A stretch of 64,000 nucleotides of DNA from an uncultured virus (IMG/VR IMGVR_UViG_3300044699_000169) (taxonomy: Duplodnaviria; Heunggongvirae; Uroviricota; Caudoviricetes). Within the stretch, counting starts at the first letter, position 1. Every line of letters starts with the position of its first letter. This document shows, piece by piece, positions 29,611-60,294 of the stretch. The DNA is taken from IMG/VR virus record IMGVR_UViG_3300044699_000169; one strand, given 5' to 3'. The notes beneath the pieces are model-generated. The model was not told where the DNA came from. It ran no database searches and saw only the letters and a program-made list of their open reading frames with translations. Made by a program: the position numbers and the translations under genes.

Positions 29611-30184
29611 TTTGCCTCCGCGAACCACGCCGGGATCTTCTCTTCCTGGTCCCCGTCATAGAAGTCCCAGACGTTTTCACCTTGTCCAGGCCGAGTGACT
29701 CCATCTCAGGCTTCACGTAGGCCATGAAAGTATGCGACGAGACGACCACGACGAGCGCCGAGGGATGGTCGGACGCCCACCGGACAACCGCTCTTGAGTT
29801 GTCCTCCATGAGGGAGGTCCCCGGCATCATCCCGCCGAAGTCATAGATCACAAGATCCGCCGACAGGTCCGGTGGCACGCACCTGGGCGTCGAGAACTCG
29901 AGCGCGTGGTCCTTCAGGATCTCCGAGAACTTCTTCTTGTACTCCTCGATCTCTTCTTCCGGGGACTGGATGCTCGTCCCCATGAAATCGACAATGATCG
30001 CGACCTTGAGCTTCTTCCGGCCCAACTCGCCGAACGACCTCGCCGTCTTGGCCTTCAGAGCTTCATGATCGAGCTTTGGAGCACACTTCCTGTGGAAAAG
30101 GTTCCCCTTTCCATCCGAGAGAGGTTCCCATCCTCGAAATGACTTCTTGCAGACCGAGCAGACTTCCTTCGCGATGGGCTTCAT
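29607..30184 (-). CDS. hypothetical protein (C-terminal frameshift)
   Basis: CSVC..HRKC N-terminus; Rossmann-like DLVIYDFGG. Confidence 0.5.
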
Positions 30185-31001
30185 TTTCTGTCCCTGAAAT
30201 GTTTCTTCGCCTGCTTCTCGGCCGTCTCCCAGATCCCCATCCTCTCAAGCTGAGCCACTATCTGCTTCAAGGTACTCGACATCGGCCCACGACACTCCCT
30301 AGTCTCCGGGTCAACCACGCAATAGTGGCCGTATTGGATGATGGAAAGCTCGGAGCCTTTGACCGGACAGATCTTGGAAGACTTGATGGCTTTCTCGACC
30401 TCGGCGCCGTGACCGTTCTTCGGGTATCTCGAGACGTCCCCGCCGAAGCACCGGATGAGCCTGCTCCGCCTCCGGAATGGGACGTTCAGAATCACGCTGA
30501 CCGAATCGACCACCGGATACCAGTAGTTCGTCAGGAATTTCCAGAAGCGATTGGTCTGACCTCTACGGCGATTGTCCTTGGCGGTCCCAGCTCCGGCACG
30601 CGCGTGCTGTTCTCTAGACCAAGCTTGGTCCCGCTGGTGGGCGAGCACGAGCTTCATCCCTGGCGTCCCAAGGATCAGGTTGTCCGGGGAGTCATTTAAG
30701 GTCTGCCCGTCCTTTCGAAGGACGAGCTGGCCCTCGGGAATCGGCCCACGGTTCTTTTCCCACCACCAGCGCGAATACTGAATCCACTTCTTCTGGTACG
30801 GCCCGGTCATCTTGACCTTGATAAAACGGGTGTAGCGCCGGCGCCCGTTGGCGATCTCGCAGCGAATCACCACCGTCCGAGCGGCATGGGATCCTTCCGG
30901 CAACGCTTGGTCGCGGCTATCCGGACGGCGCCGTAGGGGTCCGAGATGAGGGTGCCGTCCGACCTTCTACGGGGCCTTTGGCTTTCCGGGAGGGACTTCA
31001 T
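30181..31001 (-). CDS. HNH-endonuclease-like protein (5' frameshift)
   Basis: RWWWEKNRGPIPEG..KDG..LND..NL pattern of HNH_3-like nucleases; catalytic His not evident. Confidence 0.5.
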
Positions 31002-50276: not shown

Positions 50277-50626
50277 TGGTGGAGGCGGCGGGAGTCGCAC
50301 CCGCGTCCTGGAGAGATTCACGAAGGCGTCTACGCGCGTAGGCGGCGATTTGTTCTCGGTCTCGGGACGATCACCGCCGATCTTCCGTCGACCATATTCC
50401 GGATTGTTTCTTGGAAACCCTTTCCCGGACTCTTCGGGCTTCCCAGCCGATTTTTAACGTCGCATCCCGCCGATCGGCGTAAGCTGGCGCGACGTCGCGG
50501 TCAGGCCGCGAGGGACAGCTGGCGCTTGCCAGTTAGGGTTTTGGTCTCGTTTTTACGCAGCCTCGAGACCGACTGCGGCGCGCGGCTTGTCCGATCCGCA
50601 CTCCAGTCGAAAACTAGTTCGCCCCC
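50277..50626 (-). ncRNA. ssrA: tmRNA, tag peptide (A)GKRQLSLAA
   Basis: 5' GGGGGCG pairs with 3' CGCCTCC-ACCA including G3-U70; TTCGAC after D-like loop; tag ORF 50530-50501 ending LAA-TGA. Confidence 0.93.
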
Positions 50627-50684
50627 GGTTTAGAAAGATCGACGCTCGGACGTTTTCGTCCAAGCAGTTTAATGTTCTTCTGTT

Positions 50685-51008
50685 CTATCGAACGAAGTAC
50701 CAGCGGAGCGGGAAAGTCCGCGCCGCGGTCGGGGCGAGGATGCCCGTCAGCCCGATCAGGGCCGCCAGTCCCGCCGCGACCCCGCCCGCCCATCCGGCAA
50801 CCTTGAGGAAGCCCTTATCCGTATGCGTGGCGGTGTAGATCGACGCATACGAGGCGGCCGCCGCGAGGCTCGTCCAGATGATGCCTTCAGGGACCAGCGG
50901 AGGCTGTATCACCGGTTCATCGGCAAGGATGGGCACGGCCTGTGCGAGACGAGCCGGCCGATACGCTGGGGGCTGAAACGCGACGGGCCTGAAAGTTGGA
51001 GCGTACAT
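50685..51008 (-). CDS. LAQ-motif two-TM protein
   Basis: AAGGAGG RBS; RPARLAQ; two hydrophobic helices. Confidence 0.7.
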   Translation of the reverse strand: MYAPTFRPVAFQPPAYRPARLAQAVPILADEPVIQPPLVPEGIIWTSLAAAASYASIYTATHTDKGFLKVAGWAGGVAAGLAALIGLTGILAPTAARTFPLRWYFVR

Positions 51009-51059
51009 GAATTGTTTCCTCCTTACCCCCATATCCTATCCTTAACCGATCAGCAACGG

Positions 51060-51098
51060 AAAGAAAAACAGCCCGGACGTTTCCATCCGGGCTGTTTC
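51060..51098 (-). terminator. intrinsic terminator after HNH gene
   Basis: AAACAGCCCGGA/TCCGGGCTGTTT stem followed by TTTTTCTTT on minus strand. Confidence 0.7.
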
Positions 51099-51114
51099 GA
51101 TCCGCGTCTGACGA

Positions 51115-51726
51115 TCAGGGTTCGAGCTCGACCTCCCAGTATGCACGGCCGAGGAACTGCTCCCAGCTCTCGCGCCGGGCCTTGGGATGGACCTGGGCGA
51201 GCGTCTTCCAGCTTGGCTTCTTCGGCGTCTTGCGAGGAGTCATCCCGGCCTGCTCGAGCGTCTTGTCGGCCTTGCGCTTGTTGCACTCGACGCACGCGAG
51301 CAGACAGTTCTCCCAGGTCGACGTCCCGCCGCGGCTCCGAGGAATCACATGGTCGATCGTGAGCTCCTCCGGACCCGGCTGCTTCCCGCAGTACTGGCAG
51401 GTGTATCGGTCGCGCTTGAAGATGTTCTTCCGCGAGAAGACCACCGACCGCTCGCCACGTCCTTCGTACTCCGTGAGGACGACCACCTCGGGCGGGACGA
51501 TCGCCAGATGCTGGGAGCGGATCAGGCCGTCGCCGACGACCTTCATCGCCTTGGAGACTTCTCCCCAGGAAATCAGGTCATGCCGGTCGAACGTGGCCGG
51601 GTCGATGACGAAAGCCGATCCCTTGGCGACCAGGCCGATCGCGTCCTTGACGGACGTCGTCTGGATGGGATCCCAGCGCCGGTTCAGCACCAGCACCGTG
51701 CGGTCGAGCGCCTTCAAGGCCTCCAC
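51115..51726 (-). CDS. HNH endonuclease (McrA-like)
   Basis: AAGGAGGT-GTG; VLVLN..FSRKNIFKRDRYTCQYCG..TIDHVIPRSRGG..WEN..C..CN. Confidence 0.92.
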   Translation of the reverse strand: MEALKALDRTVLVLNRRWDPIQTTSVKDAIGLVAKGSAFVIDPATFDRHDLISWGEVSKAMKVVGDGLIRSQHLAIVPPEVVVLTEYEGRGERSVVFSRKNIFKRDRYTCQYCGKQPGPEELTIDHVIPRSRGGTSTWENCLLACVECNKRKADKTLEQAGMTPRKTPKKPSWKTLAQVHPKARRESWEQFLGRAYWEVELEP

Positions 51727-51782
51727 GGGCCACCTCCTTGCAGACCTGAGAAAATCGGGCTGGAACGATTCTATCTCGATTC

Positions 51783-51857
51783 TGGTACCCCGGCCAGGAG
51801 TCGCGCCTGGACTTGCGGCTTCGGAGACCGCCGTGCGATCTGTTACACCACCGGGGC
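51783..51857 (-). tRNA. tRNA-Arg(CCG)
   Basis: Cloverleaf, loop CTCCGAA, CCA. Confidence 0.85.
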
Positions 51858-52118
51858 CTGCTCGAGGTATTCGACGATCACGTCTCCGTGGCATGACATC
51901 GGATGGCAGTGGCATCCGAGCTTTTTCCCACGAAGCGCTTCCACATTGGCGCGGAAGGCGTGATCGTTCTTGATCTTGAAGTTGAAATCGGCCCGGTAGA
52001 GCCGAATCACCTCTTGGCGATCACCATCCGGGCCAAGCATGTACGGATTCCCGAACGTGGATCCGCGTCCGATGTAGACGTCGCAGGGGCTGTACCGAAT
52101 ATTGACGACTTGAGTCAC
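51843..52118 (-). CDS. DUF4326 protein
   Basis: VYIGRGSTFGNPY..LRGKKLGCHCHP..CHGDVI. Confidence 0.88.
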   Translation of the reverse strand: MTQVVNIRYSPCDVYIGRGSTFGNPYMLGPDGDRQEVIRLYRADFNFKIKNDHAFRANVEALRGKKLGCHCHPMSCHGDVIVEYLEQAPVV

Positions 52119-52137
52119 CGTACCCAGTATACAATCT

Positions 52138-52213
52138 TGGAACCCCCACCAGGAGTCGCACCTGGACCTCGCACGTTCGAAGCGTGCGATGCGATCTGCT
52201 ACACCATGGGGGC
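52138..52213 (-). tRNA. tRNA-Arg(TCG)
   Basis: Loop CTTCGAA, CCA. Confidence 0.85.
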
Positions 52214-52216
52214 GTG

Positions 52217-52291
52217 TGGTCTCCCAGGAGGGAATCGAACCCTCACCTCCACCTTCGCAGAGTGGCGGGCAATCCGTTACCCCACCGGGAG
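52217..52291 (-). tRNA. tRNA-Arg(GCG)
   Basis: Loop CTGCGAA, CCA. Confidence 0.85.
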
Positions 52292-52299
52292 ATGAATCT

Positions 52300-52373
52300 T
52301 GGAGCCCCCGCCCGGAGTCGCACCGGGCCTTGCGATGTAGGAGATCGCCGGGCGTCTACTACCCCACGGGGGC
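52300..52373 (-). tRNA. tRNA-Arg(CCT)
   Basis: Loop CTCCTAC, CCA. Confidence 0.85.
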
Positions 52374-52374
52374 T

Positions 52375-52451
52375 TGGTCAGGGACCCCGGACTCGCACCG
52401 GGCCTATGCCTGCTTCCAAGGCAGGTAGGGCGCTATCTCCCCATGTCCCTG
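52375..52451 (-). tRNA. tRNA-Pro(TGG)
   Basis: Loop CTTGGAA, CCA. Confidence 0.85.
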
Positions 52452-52457
52452 AAATAT

Positions 52458-52533
52458 TGGTGGGCCGTGCGAGTGTCGATCTCGCGTCAGGCGTTTATGA
52501 GACGCTCGCTCTTTGCCGTTGAGCTAACGGCCC
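52458..52533 (-). tRNA. tRNA(CAT), probably Ile2
   Basis: Loop CTCATAA, GGGCC acceptor. Confidence 0.75.
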
Positions 52534-52543
52534 TCGAGAATAT

Positions 52544-52623
52544 TGGTCCGGGCGGCAGGATTTGAACCTGCGTTACTCCTGTATCCGAAACAGGCGGGTT
52601 AAGCCAGGCTACCCCACGCCCGG
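52544..52623 (-). tRNA. tRNA-Pro(CGG)
   Basis: Loop TTCGGAT, CCA. Confidence 0.85.
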
Positions 52624-52631
52624 ATGAAGTT

Positions 52632-52709
52632 TGGTACACGGGGCGGGATTCGAACCCGCACTACCGACGTTCTCAGCGTCGTGACTCCTGCCAGTTGGTC
52701 TACCCGTGC
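52632..52709 (-). tRNA. tRNA-Leu(GAG), short variable arm
   Basis: Loop CTGAGAA, CCA. Confidence 0.85.
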
Positions 52710-52842
52710 AAGTGTTTTTCGAGTAACTTTTTTTGCCCTTCTGGCTCACTTTTGAACAACATACCTTCCCGGAGAGAGGGGCCCAGTTCCCTATCTCTGA
52801 GGCCGCAGGGATCGCCAGACCTCTGCGGCCTCGTTTTTTTTT

Positions 52843-52916
52843 TGGTGCCCCGCGAGGGAGTTGCACCCCCATCACCTGTATGTGAGACAGGCATTCTGCT
52901 GTTGAAATAGCGGGGC
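52843..52916 (-). tRNA. tRNA-Val(CAC)
   Basis: Loop CTCACAT, CCA. Confidence 0.85.
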
Positions 52917-52917
52917 T

Positions 52918-53000
52918 TGGTGCGGTCGAGAGGATTCGGACCTCCACCCTTTCGGACTGGCTTCTGAGACCAGCGCGTCTACCAGTTCCGCCACGACCGC
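52918..53000 (-). tRNA. tRNA-Leu(CAG)
   Basis: Loop CTCAGAA, variable hairpin, CCA. Confidence 0.88.
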
Positions 53001-53008
53001 AAATCTTT

Positions 53009-53084
53009 TGGTGGGCCTGGAGGGATTTGCACCCCCAAAATCTCGCTCCTAAGGCGAGCGCGTATGCTGTTCCGCCACAGGCCC
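53009..53084 (-). tRNA. tRNA-Leu(TAG), short variable arm
   Basis: Loop CTTAGGA, CCA. Confidence 0.85.
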
Positions 53085-53088
53085 GGGA

Positions 53089-53165
53089 TGGTGCCGCCGG
53101 CGGGACTCGCACCCGCAAGATCCCGGTTTTGAATCGGGCGCGTCTGCTAGTTGCGCCACGGCGGC
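53089..53165 (-). tRNA. tRNA-Leu(CAA), short variable arm
   Basis: Loop TTCAAAA, CCA. Confidence 0.85.
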
Positions 53166-53172
53166 AAATTAT

Positions 53173-53544
53173 TCAGGCGGAAGAAGCTCTCCAAGCCCTG
53201 TTGTATGCAACGCTGACTTCCCGGCATGGTGTACAACGACAGCCTCTACGATATCCGGTTCTCGTGCCGTGCCGAATTGGCCTCCAGCGTTCTTTGGCAG
53301 TCTTCTTTCGGTGGCACCGATCGCAAAGTACTTGGCACTTTGTAAGCTCCGCGTTTCGCCTGGCTTCGGACCAAGACCAGACCCGATGGGTTACTTTTCT
53401 GGAAGGATCTTTATGATCAACCTTCAGATCCCTCCAGGATCCACAGTGCCTACATGGACCATTCTTCTTGATCCACGTTGATTTTCGGCGAGCGATCCAT
53501 TCACGCTGGTATGACCGTTGCTGCCGGACACTTCCATAAGGCAT
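53173..53544 (-). CDS. HNH endonuclease-like protein inside tRNA array
   Basis: CRHCGS..VDHKDP..KCQVLCDRCH..HGT..Y..GCRC..C. Confidence 0.8.
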   Translation of the reverse strand: MPYGSVRQQRSYQREWIARRKSTWIKKNGPCRHCGSWRDLKVDHKDPSRKVTHRVWSWSEARRNAELTKCQVLCDRCHRKKTAKERWRPIRHGTRTGYRRGCRCTPCREVSVAYNRAWRASSA

Positions 53545-53604
53545 GAAACCCCCTCAACCCCACGATGCTGGGATTGTACAGGAGGATCCGAAAGAACTCA
53601 ATTT

Positions 53605-53655
53605 TGGTGCGCTCGGAGGGACTTGCACCCTCAAAAGCCCGGGTAAGAGCCGGGG
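53605..53655 (-). pseudogene. 3' two-thirds of tRNA-Lys(CTT); D-arm and 5' acceptor strand not found
   Basis: Anticodon arm CCCGG-CTCTTAC-CCGGG, T arm and CCA present. Confidence 0.6.
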
Positions 53656-53826
53656 GGCTGTCGATTTCCGCGGGGTCGGACGTGTTAAGCGCATCCTGCG
53701 GTGTTCAGACAAACCTCATTGGAGTCGATCTTCCGCGGGGCTTCCGGACGTGTTAAGCGCATCCTGCAGATATGTTTTCCTGCAGGATCGCCCGGAGTCC
53801 CTCGAGGGATCGACTTCGAAATTTTC

Positions 53827-53901
53827 TGGGTGGCCTCCGGAGGATTTGCAACCCCATCCCCCGGGTAAAAGCCGGGTCATCTGCTGTTGATCTTCGGAGG
53901 C
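53827..53901 (-). tRNA. tRNA-Lys(TTT), 3' part noisy
   Basis: CCCGG-CTTTTAC-CCGGG. Confidence 0.7.
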
Positions 53902-53918
53902 GGATCGGGGAGATGTTT

Positions 53919-54687
53919 TTAAGCGGGAGATTTTCCGTCCGGGCAGCAGTAGACATCGCTCGGAGGGAGAGTTCCCGTGAGACGAATGCCGATAGAAGGG
54001 TCGCTGCCCCCTTGAGCGGTCCACCAAAGTTCACAACCGCAAACACAAAAGCTGGGCCGAATGGCGCTGGCACAATGACGCCGCCAACAACGAGCGGGAT
54101 CATGACCTGTCGATGTATAGAGTTGGAATCCCAAGCAGGGAAACGTTCAGCCCACCGTATGGCCCGCACCGTTTCCCTTTGGCGTCCAGGTGCCGTTGTA
54201 AACCGTTGTCCCGCCGATCTGAACGAACGCAGTGCCGTCGCCGCGCAATGGATTCCGGCGATTCCGTTTCCCGTCGAATCAATAGGTCCCATGCCGTACT
54301 GCATGTTCGGCGATACGATCAGCGGCCCTGGAACTTCCTTGAACGCACCTGTACTGAAATCCCAACGCCGGGGAACTCCGAGAGGCGGCTTGAAGATTAC
54401 TGAGGCACCAGAATCCGGATCCATCAAGACGTTCTGGCCCAGTGAAGACTACGCTTCCGACTACTGTCGCCCATCCGCAGTTTCCCGCCTCGTCACAGCC
54501 CTTAAAAACATTCGCTGAAGAGATTTGCCTCTCGGCAGGAAATCGCAGGAGCTGAACCGCGAGCGGATGAGCCTGACGGCCATAGCCCGCTCGCGGGACC
54601 TCCCAGAGGAGTGACCAGACGCCTTGGGACGCATCGTCCAGATATGGCACGAACGAAATTTACGGGGCAGTACTTTCTTCCGGCCAT
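53919..54687 (-). CDS. frameshifted paralogue of 22247-23077
   Basis: ANVFKGC..GNCGW..GSVVF vs ADLFADC..GNVGW..GTVVF; DVYCCP vs AEFCCP. Confidence 0.55.
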
Positions 54688-54728
54688 GAGACTACTCTAC
54701 CCCTGCAGAAGAGAAGTTTCAAAGCATT

Positions 54729-54805
54729 TGGGTAGCCCGCGTCGGAGTCGCACCCGACATCCTCTGATCGAAAGGCAGAGATCCTACTGTTAGACGAGCG
54801 GGGCC
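54729..54805 (-). tRNA. tRNA-Glu(TTC)
   Basis: Loop CTTTCGA, TCGTCTA D-arm start. Confidence 0.75.
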
Positions 54806-54812
54806 ATGATCG

Positions 54813-55013
54813 GTTCCACAAGGGGGTGGCCTGGTTCGCCATCTGACGATGGTTCGTCACCCTTGCTCCGGGCAGCGTGGACTATGTACACTGCCGTCCC
54901 GGGGGGCCGCTTATTCTGCCTCGACGACCTACCTCGCGATCTGCGCCCTTTCGGCGCGGCCGATAGATCGTTGGAATTCGATTCCCGCGCGGCAGGCCAC
55001 CCTCTTGTGGGAA
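54813..55013 (-). ncRNA. unclassified ~200-nt structured RNA
   Basis: 18-bp closing stem CCACAAGAGGGTGGCCTG/CAGGCCACCCCCTTGTGG with internal hairpins; strand assumed. Confidence 0.55.
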
Positions 55014-55090
55014 ACGAAAGTAAGATCTCCTGGTGTTTTGGGATCTGGGTTGTAGCTAAAATTCTTCCTGAAGCTCGAAAGGAGAGCGGA

Positions 55091-55589
55091 ATGTTCCAGG
55101 AAGACCTTCTTGAGACAGCTCCCGTTTCAGGGATCCCCGTTCACGCGCACCCGCATGGGCCAGAATGGACCGCTCCCCGATGTGCCTGCCCCGGAACCCG
55201 CACCGATGCCGGAACCTGAACCCGCGCCGGAGCCCGCTCCAGAACCGGAGCCTCTCCCCCTTCCCCCTCCTCCTCCCCCAGCAGACTGCAAGCGCCTCGG
55301 AGTTCCCTTCAGAGAGAACGGATCGTGCCTCCAGCTCTTCGAATGCAAGCAGCCGGATGGAACGATCACCTACAAGAAGGAGCCCGCAAGCTGCCCTCCT
55401 CGGCCTCGTCCTCCGATCTACTACTTTCCGTACATTCCCCCGATCTACTACTCGCCCTACCCTCCAGAATCTCGGGAAGCGGCTTTCGAATTCGATGCCG
55501 GAGAGAAGAAGACCACGATCGAAGAAGCTGCGCCATATGCTCTCGGCGCCGTCGGGATCGCGGCCGCGCTCTACGCGATCTTCAGCTAA
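55091..55589 (+). CDS. Pro-rich MGQ-motif protein with C-terminal TM anchor (5' frameshift)
   Basis: AAGGAG-ATG 55091; RTRMGQNG; PEPAP repeats; ALGAVGIAAALYAIFS. Confidence 0.7.
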
Positions 55590-55592
55590 ATC

Positions 55593-55666
55593 TGGCAGGC
55601 CGCCAGGGATTCGCACCCTGTCCGCCGGTTTGAAGGACCAGCATCCTACTCATAGACGAGCGGCCC
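55593..55666 (-). tRNA. tRNA-Glu(TTC) with C33
   Basis: CTGGT-CCTTCAA-ACCGG, G73, CCA. Confidence 0.7.
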
Positions 55667-55671
55667 AAGAT

Positions 55672-55745
55672 TGGTAGCCTCAGCGAGATTCGCACTCGCT
55701 CCTGCACCTTGAGAGGGTGCCGACCTACTCATAGTCGATGAGGCC
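55672..55745 (-). tRNA. tRNA-Glu(CTC)
   Basis: Loop CTCTCAA. Confidence 0.85.
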
Positions 55746-55746
55746 G

Positions 55747-55822
55747 TGGTACCCCCCGGCAGGAATTGCACCCGCACTTCCGAGGTAGAAGCTCGGCGCG
55801 CTATCTGTTACGCGACAGGGGC
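55747..55822 (-). tRNA. tRNA-Arg(TCT)
   Basis: Loop CTTCTAC. Confidence 0.82.
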
Positions 55823-55827
55823 AAGAT

Positions 55828-55913
55828 TGGCACCACGGGTAGGATTCGAACCTACATACTCTTTCGAGCGCCTCATTAACAGTGAGGTGGGCTACCGATT
55901 ACCCGACCGTGGT
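55828..55913 (-). tRNA. tRNA-Asn(GTT) with long variable arm
   Basis: Loop CTGTTAA; variable region CGCTCGAAAGAGTAT. Confidence 0.85.
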
Positions 55914-55914
55914 A

Positions 55915-55990
55915 TGGAGCCGGTGGCGAGCTCTGCCCTCGCCGCCTCCGAGTTACGAACTCGGCGCTCTGCTGAATGAGCTACACCGGC
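55915..55990 (-). tRNA. tRNA-Thr(CGT)
   Basis: Loop TTCGTAA. Confidence 0.82.
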
Positions 55991-56000
55991 TTGAAGTTTT

Positions 56001-56075
56001 TGGAGCACCGTCCGGGGATCGAGCCCGGTCATGACCGCTTTGCAGGCGGCCGCGTTCCCATTTCGCCAACGGTGC
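56001..56075 (-). tRNA. tRNA-Cys(GCA)
   Basis: Loop CTGCAAA, U73. Confidence 0.85.
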
Positions 56076-56078
56076 AAG

Positions 56079-56154
56079 TGGTAGCGGGAGGGGGAGTTGA
56101 ACCCGCCGTCTCGGAGTTATGAGCCCCGCGTGATGACCGTATCACTACCCCGCA
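56079..56154 (-). tRNA. tRNA-fMet(CAT)
   Basis: 1-72 mismatch, GGG anticodon stem, loop CTCATAA. Confidence 0.78.
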
Positions 56155-56231
56155 TCGGAGATCGCCGACCGGAAGCCGTCGTGCTGAGCACGCTATCCTG
56201 GCTCGATCGAACGACTGGTGACCTTCAATAT

Positions 56232-56322
56232 TGGCGGAAGGTGCGAGAGTCGAACTCGCCGCCCGTCTTAGGGGCCCGTGTTTAGCAAACACGTCTCGCT
56301 AACCGATATCGAGCTACCTTCC
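56232..56322 (-). tRNA. tRNA-Ser(GCT)
   Basis: Loop TTGCTAA, long arm, G73. Confidence 0.88.
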
Positions 56323-56323
56323 A

Positions 56324-56411
56324 TGGCGGAGGCGACAGGAGTCGAACCTGCACGGCCGGTTAAAGCCGGCTCGCTTCCAACGAGCTGGGCCTGCCAGTGC
56401 CCAACGCCTCC
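56324..56411 (-). tRNA. tRNA-Ser(GGA)
   Basis: Loop TTGGAAG, long arm. Confidence 0.85.
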
Positions 56412-56485
56412 ATGAGGCCGGACTTGATGGATCCAGCTCGAGGGCGAAATCACAGAGAAGCTCGCCCACCATCTCTGATCAGTTT

Positions 56486-56573
56486 TGGCGGAGACGGCGT
56501 GACTTGCACACGCGCTCCCTTTCGGGGTCCACCGCTTTCAAGGCGGGGCGGCACGCTCACTGCCTTCGTCTCC
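56486..56573 (-). tRNA. tRNA-Ser(TGA)
   Basis: Loop CTTGAAA, long arm. Confidence 0.85.
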
Positions 56574-56654
56574 GTGTGGTAGAATTTTCACAGCCTTCGA
56601 AAGGCGTTTCCCTCTCCCGAGCCCAGGCACTTCGCCTGGGCTCGAATTTTTTTT

Positions 56655-56748
56655 TGGCGGAGAGCTGAGGTCTTGATCCCCATGCCCGGTTGTGCCGGGC
56701 ACCATCCCGTTTCGAGCGGGCGGCGAGTTCTCACTCGCTTAACTCTCC
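56655..56748 (-). tRNA. tRNA-Ser(CGA)
   Basis: Loop CTCGAAA, long arm. Confidence 0.82.
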
Positions 56749-56749
56749 A

Positions 56750-56824
56750 TGGTACCAGCCGACGGATCTGCCCCGTCACTTTCGGCTTATGAAACCGACG
56801 TCATTCTCGTTAGACCAGGCTGGC
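56750..56824 (-). tRNA. tRNA-Met(CAT), elongator-like
   Basis: Loop TTCATAA. Confidence 0.75.
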
Positions 56825-56907
56825 GGATCTTGGTAGAATTTCTCCTATACATACCGCCTTTGGGCCAGGGGAATAGAGATCTCCATTCTCCTGGCCTTTG
56901 TTTTTTC

Positions 56908-56982
56908 TGGAGCTGGCGACCGGTCTTGCACCGGCATCTGTCCGCTTACAAAGCGGGGGCTCTGCTGTTGAGCTACGCCAGC
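56908..56982 (-). tRNA. tRNA-Thr(TGT)
   Basis: Loop TTTGTAA. Confidence 0.85.
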
Positions 56983-57048
56983 GTGTGATACAATCCGATC
57001 ACTAGACCCGCCCAGGGCCCGGGGTTGTTCCCCGGGCTTTTTTATTTC

Positions 57049-57124
57049 TGGAGCCGGCGGCGGGTGCTGCCCCCGCACCTCGGCATTACCAATGCCGCAT
57101 TCAGAGCTGCTAAACTACGCCGGC
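57049..57124 (-). tRNA. tRNA-Thr(GGT)
   Basis: Loop TTGGTAA. Confidence 0.82.
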
Positions 57125-57237
57125 GTGAACAACGGGAGCGGGGCCCGGGTCAGCCCCTCGCGAAGGCGCACACCCTCGATCCTTGCCAGCCCGAGCCCCG
57201 CCACCAGAGTTAGGGGTCTGAGTGGTCCGGTCGATTT

Positions 57238-57435
57238 CAGTGTACACCGCCGATGAATCTGCTGAAGGCGTAAAGGACGAGCGCTGCGAGGACCGAGGAT
57301 CCAGAGCCAGCATCCGAGCGGCATCCGCGACACCATCCCGCTTCCGTCGTAGGGCCTATCGGGAGGTTTCCTGGAGGTCTTCTCCTGGCGCTGCATTTCC
57401 GCAGCACGTCTCAGGATCTCTTCCTTGCGACTCAT
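57238..57435 (-). CDS. small membrane protein (one apparent extra base)
   Basis: MSRKEEILRR..GCWLWIL, then VLAALVLYAFSRFIGGVH-stop in shifted frame. Confidence 0.5.
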
Positions 57436-57453
57436 GGAAGCATCTTACAAGAT

Positions 57454-57527
57454 TGGTGGGCACGGCTGGAATTGCACCAGCATCTCATCCATGTCACGGA
57501 TGCATTCTGCTTTTGAAATACGCGCCC
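57454..57527 (-). tRNA. tRNA-Val(GAC)
   Basis: Loop GTGACAT. Confidence 0.82.
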
Positions 57528-57530
57528 GAA

Positions 57531-57832
57531 CGAAGCGTTCGCTGACCTCGGTTTAGCCCCCACACTCGCCTGCTGGACGCTTTAGCCGGTACTTCAGAGC
57601 CCGCGCTCCCTTTATGGCGTCTCTCGCTTTCGCGGCAGGGCTGACACAAATCTTGGAAGCTCTTCACTTCCCCGGCCCGGCCATGATCATCTCCAAAAGG
57701 CATGTGGTCGAATAGCGGACCCGAAGGCCCTGCCACTCCTTCGTCCTCCGAGGCGGCTTGAGACATGGAGACTTACGTGGGTCGTTTCGCGCCGTGATCG
57801 CGTCGACTTTCACCGACAGACCGAACGCTTCG
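57531..57832 (-). ncRNA. unclassified ~300-nt structured RNA
   Basis: Ends CGAAGCGTTCG/CGAACGCTTCG pair perfectly; fills the Pro-Val spacer; strand assumed. Confidence 0.55.
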
Positions 57833-57838
57833 AAGATC

Positions 57839-57915
57839 TGGTCGGGCTCCGCGGACTTGCACCGCGCTTACTCCTGCACCCCAAGCAGGCGGGTCGCTAT
57901 CTACCCCTGAGCCCG
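57839..57915 (-). tRNA. tRNA-Pro(GGG)
   Basis: Loop TTGGGGT. Confidence 0.85.
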
Positions 57916-58125
57916 TTATGGATCAAGACTTCGGTGCATGGCGTCCTTCATGCGCTGACGATATTCGTCCCAACGCTTGGTCTTCTTGGGGCACACGGCG
58001 CAGGCGATCGCTGCCTTGAGCGTGGAGCTCCAGACCCAGTGATGGATCCCGAAGACGCAAAGCAACCTGGAGAGCCAATTGAATTTCGAGCTCTCAACTC
58101 TCCAGGACGGATCGACATGAGGCAT
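57916..58125 (-). CDS. small phage protein (DUF1660-like)
   Basis: RLLCVFGIHHW..CAVC. Confidence 0.6.
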   Translation of the reverse strand: MPHVDPSWRVESSKFNWLSRLLCVFGIHHWVWSSTLKAAIACAVCPKKTKRWDEYRQRMKDAMHRSLDP

Positions 58126-58148
58126 CGTCCCCATTGTACATCGAATCT

Positions 58149-58222
58149 TGGAGGGACCAGTGGGAGTCGAACCCACCCTGGCCGGGTCACAGCCGACCGT
58201 GCCGCCGCAACACTTTGGCCCC
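58149..58222 (-). tRNA. tRNA-His(GTG)
   Basis: Loop CTGTGAC. Confidence 0.82.
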
Positions 58223-58230
58223 ATAAGATT

Positions 58231-58305
58231 TGGTCGGCGTGGATGGTTCCGCCCCATCTTCTTCCGGTTATCAACCGGATGCTCTAGCTACTGAGCTACA
58301 CGCCG
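58231..58305 (-). tRNA. tRNA-Ile(GAT)
   Basis: Loop TTGATAA. Confidence 0.82.
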
Positions 58306-58315
58306 ATGAAAATCT

Positions 58316-58389
58316 TGGACGGGGTGACCGGTAATGATCCGGCTTCTCCTCCTTGGCAAAGAGGCGCACTACCTTTGTGCTACACCCCG
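58316..58389 (-). tRNA. tRNA-Gly(GCC)
   Basis: Loop TTGCCAA, U73. Confidence 0.82.
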
Positions 58390-58399
58390 AAAAATTTTC

Positions 58400-58478
58400 T
58401 GGTTGCCCGGGAAGGAATCGAACCTTCGTCCACCCGCTTCAAAGGCGGAGCTCCGATACCAACACAGAGTGCCGGGCA
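58400..58478 (-). tRNA. tRNA-Gln(TTG)
   Basis: Loop CTTTGAA, U1-A72. Confidence 0.82.
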
Positions 58479-58479
58479 A

Positions 58480-58572
58480 TGGTGGGAGCTGGAGGAGTTG
58501 AACCTCTCGTCCTTAACCGCCGCTCTTGTTTTGGGACAACGGTTTTACAGACCGCCGAGCGGACCAGCGCCC
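58480..58572 (-). tRNA. atypical tRNA-Tyr(GTA) lacking a D hairpin
   Basis: GCGGT-CTGTAAA-ACCGT, T arm, ACCA; D region about 9 nt, variable region about 30 nt. Confidence 0.7.
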
Positions 58573-58581
58573 AGGGAAATT

Positions 58582-58657
58582 TGGTGGATCCGGCGAGCTT
58601 TGCTCTCGCTACCTCCTGCTTGCAAAGCAGGCGCTCTCCTGATTGAGCTACGGACCC
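58582..58657 (-). tRNA. tRNA-Ala(TGC)
   Basis: Loop TTTGCAA, G3-U70. Confidence 0.85.
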
Positions 58658-58664
58658 GAAAGAT

Positions 58665-58739
58665 TGGTGGACCCAGGCGGTTCCGCCCCGCCGTCTGCCG
58701 ATTGCGAACCGGCCGCTCTCCTGATTGAGCTATGGGCCC
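58665..58739 (-). tRNA. tRNA-Ala(CGC)
   Basis: Loop TTCGCAA, G3-U70. Confidence 0.85.
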
Positions 58740-58740
58740 G

Positions 58741-58815
58741 TAGCAGAGGCAGGATTTGAACCTGCAAGCCCCAGGTTATGAGCCTGGTGAGGTCACCGGA
58801 TGCCTCTCCTCTGCA
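58741..58815 (-). tRNA. tRNA(CAT), initiator-like, CCA not encoded
   Basis: Loop CTCATAA, 1-72 mismatch. Confidence 0.72.
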
Positions 58816-58820
58816 AGATT

Positions 58821-58894
58821 TGGTGGATCCAGGGAGAATCGCACTCCCGCCTCGAGCGTGCCACGCTCGCGTCCTCCTGCTAGACGATGGACCC
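58821..58894 (-). tRNA. tRNA-Ala(GGC)
   Basis: Loop GTGGCAC, G3-U70. Confidence 0.82.
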
Positions 58895-58969
58895 TGGTGC
58901 CGGCCTCCGGTGCTGCCCCGGACGCCTCCCGCTTTTCAGACGGGCGCTCTACTGCTGAGCTAGACCGGC
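58895..58969 (-). tRNA. tRNA-Phe(GAA)
   Basis: Loop CTGAAAA. Confidence 0.82.
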
Positions 58970-59140
58970 GAGTAATTCTTCTGCCCGAAGCACGATCCCG
59001 AGCGCGTAGGCCCAACGTCTGAACCCTGGAATCTCGAGCTCGTATCTTTCGATGATCGTTTCCCCGGCCCTCCAGCCGTCTCTCCGGATCGTCCACCCAT
59101 ACTCGGTGAGCGCCTGGATCCGCTTCTCCCGATCGTCCAT
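58949..59140 (-). CDS. small hypothetical protein
   Basis: GGAGG RBS; stop falls inside tRNA-Phe. Confidence 0.45.
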   Translation of the reverse strand: MDDREKRIQALTEYGWTIRRDGWRAGETIIERYELEIPGFRRWAYALGIVLRAEELLAGLAQQ

Positions 59141-59229
59141 GCAGCACCTCCACAGGTATCGCGTCTGGATCGAGAGGGGTGTGACAAAGAATGAAAAATA
59201 GGCTAGAATCCCCCGGCAAGGGGGAACTT

Positions 59230-59551
59230 ATGAGCGAACTGCTGCAGGTCACGGACAAGAACTTCGACGAGGCGCTCAAGGCGCCGCTGGCGATCATTGA
59301 GTTCTGGGCGCCCTGGTGCCCGGGCTGCAAGGCCGCCAAGCCCACGATCGCCAAGATCGCCGGCGAGCTCCAAGGTCAGGTGCTCGTCGTCGGAGCCGAC
59401 ATCGACGAAGCGCCAAAAGCCACCGAGAGGCACGAGGTCACCTCGATCCCGACGCTCGTCTTCTTCAGGGACGGCAAGGAGTTCTACCGCATCGACGGGA
59501 CGACTCCTACCGGCGCCTCATGCCCGACATCAAGAGCCGATTCGGATCTGA
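59230..59551 (+). CDS. trxA: thioredoxin (C-terminal frameshift in this read)
   Basis: EFWAPWCPGCK, SIPTLVFFRDGK. Confidence 0.85.
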
Positions 59552-59555
59552 AGAT

Positions 59556-59631
59556 TGGTTCCCACGCCAGGATTCGAACCTGGAATCTCCACGGTCAGAA
59601 CGTGGCGTCCTACCGGTTAGACGACGTGGGA
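59556..59631 (-). tRNA. tRNA-Gln(CTG)
   Basis: Loop TTCTGAC. Confidence 0.88.
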
Positions 59632-59716
59632 GTAAAGGGCGACACGCACCAGCGAGCGCGCGTTCGACTTGTCGGTGCAGGCTCATCGCGCGGAGCCCGT
59701 TACATCGCCCGAAGCT

Positions 59717-59792
59717 TGGCGCCCCTGATGGGATTCGAACCCACGGTCTCCTCCGTGACAGGGAGGCGGGGACTCCACTCCCCTACAGAGGC
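59717..59792 (-). tRNA. tRNA-Asp(GTC)
   Basis: Loop CTGTCAC, G73. Confidence 0.88.
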
Positions 59793-59803
59793 GTTTTCAA
59801 TTT

Positions 59804-59877
59804 TGGCATGCCGGAGAGGAGTCGCACCTCTACCCGCTGACTTGGAAACAGCGATGCTGCTGCTACACCACCGGCAT
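59804..59877 (-). tRNA. tRNA-Trp(CCA)
   Basis: Loop TTCCAAG, G73. Confidence 0.8.
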
Positions 59878-59878
59878 G

Positions 59879-59953
59879 TGGAGCGGGCAGCGGGACTTGC
59901 ACCCGCGATCTTCTCCTTGGGAAGGAGACGCGTTGCTTCTACGCTACGCCCGC
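59879..59953 (-). tRNA. tRNA-Gly(CCC)
   Basis: Loop TTCCCAA. Confidence 0.85.
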
Positions 59954-59956
59954 ATG

Positions 59957-60030
59957 TGGACCGCCTGACCGGAGTCGCACCGGCATCATCTGGGTGGAAA
60001 CCAGACGCTCTGCTGTTGAGCTACAGGCGG
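59957..60030 (-). tRNA. tRNA-Gly(TCC), first tRNA of the array
   Basis: Loop TTTCCAC. Confidence 0.85.
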
Positions 60031-60049
60031 ACGAAAGGCGCGTCACCGC

Positions 60050-60078
60050 TTGAAGATTTCATCCCCCTCGCGTATACT
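60050..60078 (+). promoter_or_regulatory. sigma70-type promoter for a plus-strand structured RNA
   Basis: TTGAAG-17-TATACT. Confidence 0.6.
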
Positions 60079-60294
60079 CGCTTCCCGAGCGTGTGACGGC
60101 CTGGCATTGAGGTCGGGGAGGCCCACCCTTCCCGGATGGGCCTCCCCTTCCGATCTTTGTCGTTCCAGCCCGATTTTCAAGTGCGGCGCGCGCCAACGCG
60201 CCGCGGCTTCCTGGCTCAGGGGCCCGGCCGGAGCCGATGGCGTCCTGAGTCCCTGGTATCCGCCCACCGACCTTCCAAGGTCGGTGGGTACAAC

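Follow-up and report, generated by a model that had tools for sequence, protein, structure and literature searches.

Can the elbow of a transfer RNA (tRNA) be built in more than one way, and what could an array of tRNA genes gain from building it differently? This question is raised by an uncultured virus of the Caudoviricetes (IMG/VR record IMGVR_UViG_3300044699_000169), of which a stretch of 64,000 nucleotides, hereafter the window, was analysed. Within positions 50277-60030 of the window lie a transfer-messenger RNA (tmRNA) gene and 46 tRNA-like genes, all on the minus strand. In tRNA, the contact between G18 of the D loop and pseudouridine 55 of the T loop is near-universal; U55 is the substrate of TruB, and the pseudouridine that this enzyme makes there ranks with the best-conserved modifications of RNA. 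In reviews, its contact with G18 is regarded as a universal element of tRNA architecture (PMC4810234). In the window, a near-complete tRNA set and a tmRNA have this contact systematically replaced by a matched alternative, A18 with G55. The locus is probably a phage tRNA array with a tmRNA in which two elbow designs coexist, the swapped one being compensated and its genes working in translation.

Each gene was parsed by pairing alone (acceptor, D, anticodon and T stems), blind to loop sequence. Position 19 was taken as the D-loop base complementary to position 56 and position 18 as the base before it, with at least one base between 14-15 and 18 and at least one between 19 and 21. Genes with A18 and G55 are called swapped and those with G18 and U55 canonical, while Y55 denotes a pyrimidine at 55. 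A first-pass annotation, made from the sequence alone, had counted about 28 G55 tRNAs among 46, and the parse returned both figures. Its description of the D loops also stood: 27 of the 28 G55 genes read A18-G19, every example it had named being correct, and 17 of the 18 Y55 genes read G18-G19, with Ser-CGA as the exception. The association that it expected between positions 18 and 55 is accordingly found (A18/G55 27, G18/G55 0, A18/Y55 1, namely Ser-CGA, G18/Y55 17, with Lys-CTT not assignable; Fisher p = 1.6e-11), and it persists at p = 4.1e-11 when a Tyr-like element with an unreliable D region is left out. An alignment-free check agrees, in that no GG occurs anywhere in the D loop of 24/28 G55 genes vs 1/18 Y55 genes (p = 5.4e-8). 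Positions 18 and 55 read straight from a MAFFT or covariance-model alignment were rejected as a basis for counting, because D-loop bases are placed inconsistently when loop lengths differ.

The T loops of the G55 genes are TGCGA (10), TGCAA (10), GGCAG (4), GGCGG (2), AGCAA (1) and CGCGA (1); those of the Y55 genes, which comprise 17 U and one C at position 55, are TTCGA (9), TTCAA (4) and one each of ATCAT, ATCAA, ATCGA, CTCGA and TCCGA. C56 is present in 46/46 genes, with a G available at position 19 in 45 (Lys-CTT is unclear), and position 57 is a purine. U54 and A58 are kept in 20/28 swapped genes, and G54 is accompanied by G58 in all six of its cases, each of them with G55. Thus, 28 of the 46 genes depart from G18 with U55 (27 of them with A18), and every other tRNA feature tested is present, including a 7-bp acceptor stem, a 5-bp T stem, a 7-nt T loop and a 7-nt anticodon loop.

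Swapped and canonical genes are interleaved along the array, and the Arg, Leu, Pro, Gly and Ser families each contain both elbow kinds. Stem identity is 0.451 within elbow classes and 0.440 between them, so the swapped genes are not a young paralogue family; recent paralogy as a source of the covariation was rejected on this ground. The nearest neighbour belongs to the same class in 27/40 cases vs 20.3 expected (p ~0.05). The swapped D loops are also shorter and poorer in U, with a mean of 0.89 U vs 1.82 in canonical ones, and lack U altogether in 9/27 swapped vs 1/17 canonical genes (p = 0.0075).

The tmRNA carries the same pair of changes, as the first-pass annotation had noticed. It matches Rfam RF00023 over the full length of the model with 123 bits vs a gathering score of 47, and its tag, GKRQLSLAA, ends in LAA. 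In the Rfam alignment it shows UAG for the consensus uGG and UGCGA for UUCGA: the consensus cuGGaUUCGAC becomes cUAGUUUUCGAC in the window, and GGGUUCGA becomes GGGUGCGA. Among the parseable tmRNA genes of viral contigs, T-loop position 2 is G in 55/55 with UAG vs 0/30 with UGG (p = 1.2e-23), the latter having 29 U and one C; a further 23 UAG and 57 UGG genes, for which no 3' part was found, do not enter these counts. The 55 UAG/G genes comprise 51 permuted two-piece and 4 standard tmRNAs, and some tmRNAs of viral contigs may be host genes at prophage borders.

The same rule is followed far outside the window. An external search was seeded with one A18-type D-arm word, and the counts were then taken on neighbouring tRNAs, which weigh more than the seeds because they were not picked by their elbow. 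The seed occurred at 41 loci in viral contigs, where the seeded tRNAs were 19 G55, 2 U55 and 20 not parsed, and at 122 loci or more in a one-per-species genome set (65 G55, 1 U55, 56 not parsed). The 120 distinct neighbours in viral contigs comprised 68 A18/G55, 0 G18/G55, 0 A18/Y55 and 45 G18/Y55 genes, and the 616 distinct neighbours in bacterial and archaeal genomes comprised 406, 7, 0 and 118, respectively, the rest being ambiguous in both sets. G54/G58 goes with G55 in 16/17 and 76/78 cases of the two external sets, and swapped D loops tend to be shorter and U-poor in both. Furthermore, at two loci (L036, a viral contig, and L035), position 56 of some T loops is U, A or G, and the D loops offer the matching base at 19; such joint Watson-Crick change indicates that the tertiary contact is under selection. 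At 16 swapped-array loci, Rfam returned 254 matches at gathering score, the best 150 of which all belong to RF00005. With near-perfect covariation in the window, in hundreds of other tRNAs and in tmRNAs, the compensated alternative elbow that the first-pass annotation had proposed is well supported.

The distribution of the swap was further delimited by arrays and genomes of known carriers. In a Prosthecobacter genome, all 18 parsed dispersed tRNAs are canonical (19 regions examined), whereas the tRNA array of the same genome holds 21 A18/G55 genes among 24, together with two G55 genes in which position 18 is unassigned and one canonical gene. The plasmid arrays of Nostoc sp. C057 (18/18) and Paenibacillus pSC2 (29/29) are canonical, and this result (47/47) led to the rejection of a general link between the swap and L-arrays. 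Bacillus phages Goe3 and FADO, Mycobacterium phage ScoobyDoobyDoo and Xanthomonas phage DIBBI are canonical at 44/44, as is Roseobacter phage DSS3P8 at 16/16. Erythrobacter phage XM05 (PV416404.1) has 2/16 swapped genes beside 14 canonical ones, both swapped genes being Val tRNAs with A18 and a GGCAGGA T loop (locus L439, 3728-3800 and 3994-4066); being cultured, this phage is a possible laboratory system. The earlier remark that non-canonical T loops are known in phage arrays found no confirmation in the five other cultured phages, in which 60/60 parsed tRNAs are canonical. The canonical arrays show that the swap is not required for array or phage tRNAs in general and, together with Prosthecobacter, that it marks certain accessory or mobile arrays rather than a host lineage or phage tRNAs as a whole. 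Some single-copy tRNAs of Patescibacteria and Streptomyces contigs are swapped as well.

It is important to note that several points weigh against this interpretation. A single A18 D-arm word served as the seed for the external sets, and many external arrays are interrelated, many coming from Verrucomicrobiota, so that the large neighbour counts overstate the number of independent events. The assignment of position 18 depends on a rule anchored at the 19:56 pair, and a covariance-model alignment places the D-loop columns inconsistently. Within the array, Ser-CGA breaks the pairing rule by having A18 with U55, four to five of the 46 genes look degenerate, and 18 genes have the canonical elbow, which is also the only one seen in five cultured-phage and two plasmid arrays. 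Finally, the 84 open reading frames (ORFs) of the window that were scanned included no recognisable gene for tRNA modification or processing, and nothing in the window links the swap to a particular enzyme. Even so, mixed states at positions 18 and 55 are almost absent despite the kinship of the arrays.

The way in which A18 and G55 could meet is indicated by T loops of other RNAs. In the canonical elbow, residue 18 intercalates between 57 and 58, position 56 pairs with 19, and G18 and pseudouridine 55 share a single hydrogen bond (PMC4810234). Riboswitch T loops follow the consensus UGNRA or CGNRA and take up an intercalated adenine (99.96% in the FMN alignment), which is bound through two hydrogen bonds to the sugar edge of the G in the second loop position; tRNA differs by its U at that position, and a GGAAG variant is named for ribosomal RNA (rRNA) (10.1101/2022.12.26.521914). 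G at loop position 2 with a purine at position 4, as in UGNRA, is found in 28/28 swapped tRNAs and in the tmRNA, and A18 occupies, at the sequence level, the place of the intercalating adenine in 27/28 G55 genes. Loop positions 1/5 of these genes are U/A in 20, C/A in one, G/G in six and A/A in one; the G/G and A/A loops would fit other T-loop variants and not UGNRA. The canonical design of the array would set G18 against U55, or pseudouridine 55, in addition to G19:C56. In the swapped design, with its N-G-C-R-N T loop (mostly UGCRA), an A instead of a G would slot between 57 and 58, and A18 would bond to the sugar edge of G55, as the adenine of riboswitch UGNRA loops does. The G19:C56 pair forms the flat face that is read by the ribosome, RNase P and other partners. 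This pair is unchanged, and hence the L shape and the docking surface should be preserved.

The consequences for modification follow from the bases themselves. TruB acts on U55, so that pseudouridine 55 is ruled out in G55 tRNAs; A18 leaves no site for Gm18, the eight swapped genes that lack U54 have no m5U54, and short, U-poor D loops offer fewer possible dihydrouridine sites. Together, these features point to a second workable way of building a tRNA that cannot carry pseudouridine 55, in which the alternative contact is a known RNA motif in a new place. A full-text literature search, with subscription journals and supplements outside its reach, returned no description of an A18/G55 tRNA elbow. 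What is new is the size and mixed make-up of the set, the covariation in tmRNA, the G54/G58 variants, the U-poor D loops and the culturable phage carrier.

The genes of the array show features expected of functional tRNAs. N73-CCA ends 42/46 genes, G3:U70 is present in 3/3 Ala genes, A20 in 5/5 Arg genes and C1:G72 with A73 in 3/3 Pro genes; the expected discriminator bases are kept, and the anticodon loops are regular, with 7 nt. Swapped genes alone cover Ala, Val, Thr, Glu, Lys, Phe, Ile and Trp. Identity elements and an encoded CCA suggest working tRNAs, and the swapped genes would then take part in translation during infection. A comparable array has been studied in Anabaena PCC 7120, where 23 of the 26 tRNAs of the trn operon were detected and charged in vivo; the elbow is not mentioned in the accessible text of that study (PMC8421152).

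The array is dense, with 46 tRNA genes in 51783-60030 (8.25 kb), or about 5.6 per kb, which agrees with the definition of a tRNA array unit as at least 20 tRNA genes at a density of at least 2 per kb (PMC4758250). Several tools were needed to list its members. ARAGORN by default called 35 tRNAs and the tmRNA. Rfam RF00005 gave 33 matches at its gathering score of 29 bits, six of which ARAGORN had missed (58898-58969, 58668-58739, 58585-58657, 57052-57124, 56753-56824 and 55918-55990), along with weaker matches at 53832-53901 and 54733-54804; with laxer filters it gave 36 matches of at least 29 bits, and ARAGORN supplied 7 others. Ser-CGA, Lys-CTT and the Tyr-like element fall below the RF00005 threshold and come only from relaxed ARAGORN or the pairing parse. 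The six clear genes missed by default ARAGORN score 45-58 bits in Rfam and all lack U54 (GGCAG, GGCGG or AGCAA). Gene finders thus under-call swapped tRNAs with G54 or A54, and tRNAs of this type are likely under-annotated in phage genomes. Two further searches support the list. A de novo cloverleaf scan blind to loop sequence recovered 39/46 array genes with scores of at least 18.8, the other 7 being parsed under relaxed rules, and none at that cut-off on either strand of the rest of the window, where the best of 10 matches scored 17.4; a covariance model (R1) built from 36 array genes recovered 43 members at E <=3.8e-5. The features are as follows, with loops written as D loop / T loop, or the T loop alone, and the evidence at the end of each line.

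50277..50626, minus strand: tmRNA, one-piece, tag GKRQLSLAA, swapped (UAG for UGG; UGCGA T loop); ARAGORN, RF00023.
59957..60030, minus: tRNA-Gly(TCC), swapped, AACAGCA / TGCGACT; ARAGORN, Rfam, parse.
59879..59953, minus: tRNA-Gly(CCC), swapped, AGAAGCA / TGCAAGT; ARAGORN, Rfam, parse.
59804..59877, minus: tRNA-Trp(CCA), swapped, AGCAGCA / TGCGACT; ARAGORN, Rfam, parse.
59717..59792, minus: tRNA-Asp(GTC), canonical, AGTGGAGT / TTCGAAT; ARAGORN, Rfam, parse.
59556..59631, minus: tRNA-Gln(CTG), canonical, AACCGGTA / TTCGAAT; ARAGORN, Rfam, parse.
58895..58969, minus: tRNA-Phe(GAA), swapped, G54/G58, AGCAGTA / GGCAGCA; Rfam 44.8 bits, missed by ARAGORN, anticodon from parse.
58821..58894, minus: tRNA-Ala(GGC), swapped, AGCAGGA / TGCGATT, G3:U70; ARAGORN, Rfam, parse.
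58740..58815, minus: tRNA-Met(CAT) a, canonical, TTCAAAT, U1xU72, CCA not encoded; ARAGORN, Rfam, parse.
58665..58739, minus: tRNA-Ala(CGC), swapped, G54/G58, AATCAGGA / GGCGGAA, G3:U70; Rfam 47.9 bits, relaxed ARAGORN, parse.
58582..58657, minus: tRNA-Ala(TGC), swapped, A54, AATCAGGA / AGCAAAG, G3:U70; Rfam 58 bits, relaxed ARAGORN, parse.
58480..58573, minus: Tyr-like element, canonical T arm TTCAACT, acceptor stem, CCA and CUGUAAA loop, no normal D arm; weak Rfam tRNA-Sec match, parse.
58400..58478, minus: tRNA-Gln(TTG), canonical, TTCGATT; ARAGORN, parse.
58316..58389, minus: tRNA-Gly(GCC), G18G19 with U55, A54/U58, AAAGGTA / ATCATTA; ARAGORN, Rfam, parse.
58231..58305, minus: tRNA-Ile(GAT), swapped, G54/G58, AGTAGCTA / GGCGGAA; ARAGORN, Rfam, parse.
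58149..58222, minus: tRNA-His(GTG), canonical, TTCGACT; ARAGORN, Rfam, parse.
57839..57915, minus: tRNA-Pro(GGG), swapped, AGATAGCG / TGCAAGT; ARAGORN, parse.
57454..57527, minus: tRNA-Val(GAC), swapped, AAAAGCA / TGCAATT; ARAGORN, Rfam, parse.
57049..57124, minus: tRNA-Thr(GGT), swapped, G54/G58, AGCAGCTCT / GGCAGCA; Rfam 45 bits, missed by ARAGORN.
56908..56982, minus: tRNA-Thr(TGT), swapped, AACAGCA / TGCAAGA; ARAGORN, Rfam, parse.
56750..56824, minus: tRNA-Met(CAT) b, swapped, G54/G58, AACGAGAA / GGCAGAT; Rfam 44.8 bits, relaxed ARAGORN, parse.
56655..56748, minus: tRNA-Ser(CGA)-like, the exception, D loop A-G, T loop ATCAAGA (U55), possibly decayed; ARAGORN only at -ps80.
56486..56573, minus: tRNA-Ser(TGA), swapped, GTGAGCG / TGCAAGT; ARAGORN, parse.
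56324..56411, minus: tRNA-Ser(GGA), canonical, TTCGACT; ARAGORN, parse.
56232..56322, minus: tRNA-Ser(GCT), canonical, TTCGACT; ARAGORN, parse.
56079..56154, minus: tRNA-Met(CAT) c, canonical, TTCAACT, U1xU72, initiator-like; ARAGORN, Rfam, parse.
56001..56075, minus: tRNA-Cys(GCA), G18G19 with U55, C54, CTCGATC; ARAGORN, Rfam, parse.
55915..55990, minus: tRNA-Thr(CGT), swapped, G54/G58, ATTCAGCA / GGCAGAG; Rfam 46.3 bits, missed by ARAGORN.
55828..55913, minus: tRNA-Asn(GTT), canonical, TTCGAAT, 15-nt variable region; ARAGORN, Rfam, parse.
55747..55822, minus: tRNA-Arg(TCT), swapped, AACAGATA / TGCAATT, acceptor register ambiguous (G1xG72 or extra base); ARAGORN, Rfam, parse.
55672..55745, minus: tRNA-Glu(CTC), swapped, ATGAGTA / TGCGAAT; ARAGORN, Rfam, parse.
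55593..55666, minus: tRNA-Glu(TTC), swapped, ATGAGTA / TGCGAAT; ARAGORN, Rfam with laxer filters, parse.
54729..54804, minus: second Glu(TTC)-like gene, swapped, AACAGTA / TGCGACT, bulged acceptor, ACCCA end, possibly degenerate; Rfam 29.3 bits, model R1 44.7 bits.
53829..53901, minus: Lys(TTT)-like gene, swapped, AACAGCA / TGCAAAT, T stem 1 base short, ACCCA end; Rfam 36.2 bits.
~53605..53692, minus: Lys(CTT)-like gene, G55 (TGCAAGT), enlarged aberrant D region, position 18 not assignable; ARAGORN -ps80, model R1 32 bits.
53089..53165, minus: tRNA-Leu(CAA), swapped, AACTAGCAG / TGCGAGT, short variable loop; ARAGORN, Rfam, parse.
53009..53084, minus: tRNA-Leu(TAG), swapped, AACAGCAT / TGCAAAT, short variable loop; ARAGORN, Rfam, parse.
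52918..53000, minus: tRNA-Leu(CAG), G18G19 with C55, TCCGAAT; ARAGORN, Rfam, parse.
52843..52916, minus: tRNA-Val(CAC), swapped, AACAGCA / TGCAACT; ARAGORN, Rfam, parse.
52632..52709, minus: tRNA-Leu(GAG), canonical, TTCGAAT, short variable loop; ARAGORN, Rfam, parse.
52544..52623, minus: tRNA-Pro(CGG), canonical, TTCAAAT; ARAGORN, Rfam, parse.
52458..52533, minus: tRNA-Met(CAT) d, G18G19 with U55, A54, ATCGACA; ARAGORN, Rfam, parse.
52375..52451, minus: tRNA-Pro(TGG), swapped, AGATAGCG / TGCGAGT; ARAGORN, parse.
52300..52373, minus: tRNA-Arg(CCT), swapped, AGTAGAC / TGCGACT, A20; ARAGORN, parse.
52217..52291, minus: tRNA-Arg(GCG), canonical, AACGGATT / TTCGATT, A20; ARAGORN, Rfam, parse.
52138..52213, minus: tRNA-Arg(TCG), swapped, AGCAGATC / TGCGACT, A20; ARAGORN, Rfam, parse.
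51783..51857, minus: tRNA-Arg(CCG), swapped, C54, AACAGATC / CGCGACT, A20; ARAGORN, Rfam with laxer filters, parse.

Some members of the list are unusual in other respects. The Leu(CAA), Leu(TAG) and Leu(GAG) genes (53009-53165 and 52632-52709, minus strand) have a 5-nt variable loop and Leu(CAG) an 11-nt variable region, whereas bacterial tRNA-Leu usually has a long variable arm; the 15-nt variable region of tRNA-Asn(GTT) is unusual for Asn. Two of the four CAT tRNAs (58740-58815 and 56079-56154) have an initiator-like U1xU72 mismatch, and the former, without an encoded CCA, abuts the next tRNA. The anticodon loop of tRNA-Glu(TTC) at 55593-55666 reads CCUUCAA, with C33 instead of the usual U. 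The Tyr-like element at 58480-58573 gives no convincing cloverleaf on folding (z = -1.36), and 6 bases near its 5' end are complementary to a stretch of the long region that follows its anticodon arm. As Tyr is otherwise missing from the set, this element may be an odd tRNA-Tyr.

The DNA of the window is phage DNA, with G+C of about 60% throughout. Its genes code for a virion structural protein (phrog_1645, E = 5e-88), a tail-fibre-like protein, HNH endonucleases, an integrase, a large glycosyltransferase and collagen-like proteins; Pfam, applied to 84 ORFs, gave glycosyltransferase, collagen-like, ice-binding-like, integrase, HNH, ParB-N, DUF4326 and thioredoxin matches, and PHROGs, applied to 40 ORFs, contributed families of virion, tail-fibre and HNH proteins. 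Next to the array lies an HNH endonuclease gene (51115-51915, minus strand) whose longest ORF overlaps tRNA-Arg(CCG), and a second HNH-type ORF lies at 30181-30903. A DUF4326 gene (51843-52118, minus strand) lies within or beside the array, and a thioredoxin gene (59191-60096) occupies the plus strand, opposite to it. A raiA-motif RNA (RF03072; 57533-57830, minus strand; 104.3 bits vs gathering 101.3, E = 1.7e-24) sits inside the array on the same strand, flanked by tRNA-Pro(GGG) and tRNA-Val(GAC), and would be set free by tRNA processing; at the 16 other array loci, no raiA RNA was among the best 150 of the 254 Rfam matches.

Neither the GenBank phage set nor plasmids yielded a close relative of the array, and the contig of the window itself was not among the viral-contig matches; near-identical copies are present in soil, rhizosphere and root metagenome assemblies. 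Twenty sequencing runs from 17 named studies contain part of the stretch, with no RNA run among them. Contigs of four DNA runs include, for instance, a piece of 1664 bases that matches 56908-58572 apart from 3 differences and 3 gaps. Strain-specific deletions occur at about 53.2-55.0 kb, where contigs skip 53165-53842, 53901-54801 or 53906-55048, and 53948-54790 is uncovered by the contigs of the four DNA runs. Lys-CTT, Lys-TTT and the second, aberrant Glu-TTC lie in this strain-variable stretch (53200-55050), which also contains a 22-base direct repeat around the 5' part of Lys-CTT and a small ORF (53173-53544) that looks HNH-like by eye and has no Pfam hit.

What, then, maintains the swapped elbow? 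As a cause of selection, we favour independence from the modifying enzymes and folding aids of the host over evasion of nucleases, because several modification sites are lost at once, and on mobile arrays that have to work in different cells. The advantage would be an elbow whose firm folding needs neither modification enzymes nor chaperones of the host, a reading that is plausible, though held tentatively and a little short of an even chance; such an elbow would be of use where a mobile element produces tRNAs in large amounts in hosts of different kinds. A broader version is possible but doubtful: A18/G55, in many cases joined by G54/G58 or A54/U58 and by U-poor D loops, would constitute a distinct chassis for tRNA and tmRNA that lacks the customary core modifications, with which phages, transferable tRNA arrays and other mobile elements run translation without TruB, TrmA, TrmH and Dus and may also evade host readers of the T-pseudouridine-C corner. 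Escape alone, from a nuclease or other attack that reads the elbow or T loop (a host defence, a competitor toxin or a phage enzyme that clears host tRNAs), is an unlikely explanation. G55 would remove the UUC or T-pseudouridine-C feature and A18 would compensate; a toxin that cuts between positions 54 and 55 exists, the near-complete set with its tmRNA would fit the replacement of a damaged host pool, and mobile arrays are enriched in the swap, which the dispersed tRNAs of the same Prosthecobacter cell lack (18/18 canonical). Phage tRNAs reportedly escape anticodon nucleases by loop mutations, but the available text of that report does not contain the words T-loop, D-loop or elbow (PMC10264068), and anti-phage tRNases act on the anticodon arm, as far as the portion consulted of a further source goes (PMC13056530). 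Moreover, 18 canonical phage tRNAs would stay exposed, including the sole Asp, Asn, Gln, His, Cys and initiator-like genes, and the only nucleases recognised in the window are HNH-type DNA endonucleases. It is also rather unlikely, if somewhat less so, that the swap is a near-neutral second stable state, with unfit single mutants between two fitness peaks and a pattern that mainly reflects ancestry. The rarity of mixed states fits strong epistasis (1/46 in the window; 0 A18/Y55 and 7 G18/G55 among 736 neighbours), both designs coexist in one array, single-copy tRNAs of Patescibacteria and Streptomyces share the swap, and nearest neighbours share their class weakly above chance (27/40 vs 20.3). 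Yet the swap is strongly enriched in array over dispersed genes of one genome and recurs in many amino-acid families, each of which keeps its own identity elements; both facts, together with short, U-poor D loops and the partial loss of U54, argue for a shared pressure, not drift.

Two further explanations are both very improbable. The G55 genes might be pseudogenes, decoys or tRNA mimics, as the aberrant D region of Lys-CTT, the ACCCA ends of Lys-TTT and the second Glu-TTC, Ser-CGA, the Tyr-like element, the six G54/A54 members missed by default ARAGORN and the strain-variable middle of the array could suggest. However, 22/28 G55 genes score 40.5-61.1 bits vs the Rfam gathering score of 29, the remainder being three found by ARAGORN only, two near the cut-off (36.2 and 29.3 bits) and Lys-CTT, which has no Rfam match. 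Regular anticodon loops, identity elements, encoded CCA, the eight amino acids covered only by G55 genes and the persistence of near-identical copies in soil and rhizosphere assemblies of several studies also speak against decay. Alternatively, the cause could lie in DNA, an altered GTTCGA box shielding tRNA genes from homing endonucleases and A18 being a repair at the RNA level. The HNH gene at 51115-51915 and the second HNH-type ORF at 30181-30903 are in keeping with this idea, as are the conserved HNH genes beside arrays and the preference of T4 SegB for cutting within tRNA genes, both described in PMC8421152. Nevertheless, the Nostoc plasmid array is canonical at 18/18 with an HNH gene adjacent, 18 genes of the window array are canonical, and the swap also occurs in tmRNAs and in single-copy tRNAs off arrays.

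If the swapped tRNAs work, the elbow has at least two designs, and a large class of natural tRNAs can, by construction, dispense with pseudouridine 55. Should the chassis without core modifications be real, G18-pseudouridine 55 would be a cellular convention, not a structural necessity, and the swapped elbow an orthogonal handle that separates mobile from host tRNAs. The array may also serve as a natural experiment on why cells modify the elbow and as a possible handle for engineering orthogonal tRNAs.

Compared with the canonical elbow, with its A58-G18-R57-G19 stack and T54:A58 reverse Hoogsteen pair, the swapped genes keep the same cloverleaf, the 7-nt T loop, G19 and C56, and differ by G55 and A18 in 27-28 genes and the tmRNA, six genes also having G54/G58. 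With the T loops of FMN and cobalamin riboswitches they share G at position 2, a purine at 4, U/A at 1/5 in 20 of the 28 and an adenine from the partner loop, and the GGCAG and GGCGG loops of the window resemble the GGAAG T loop of rRNA; unlike riboswitch T loops, they stand in a tRNA or tmRNA elbow and keep the Watson-Crick pair C56-G19, which is specific to tRNA. Phage tRNAs that escape anticodon nucleases likewise depart from the host consensus at conserved positions, but there the changes lie in the anticodon loop and the attacker is known, whereas the window has a compensated tertiary pair at the elbow and no known attacker.

L-arrays such as the Anabaena trn operon, and phage tRNA clusters, are like the window in having a dense, co-oriented array with encoded CCA and an HNH neighbour. 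Only certain array lineages bear the swap: the plasmid arrays of Nostoc and Paenibacillus are canonical, and that of the window is mixed. For tmRNA, the closest precedents come from a 2005 comparative study, in which the two-piece tmRNA of Caulobacter crescentus has G at the position equivalent to Escherichia coli U342 (the U55 equivalent) and the mitochondrial tmRNA of Reclinomonas americana has GG at 341-342, the accessible text making no mention of a partner change in the D loop (PMC1168896). Both thus resemble the window tmRNA in carrying G at the U55 equivalent. The Caulobacter tmRNA reportedly works in vivo, to judge from the title of a cited work; it is a two-piece molecule, whereas the tmRNA of the window is a standard one-piece gene inside a phage tRNA array.

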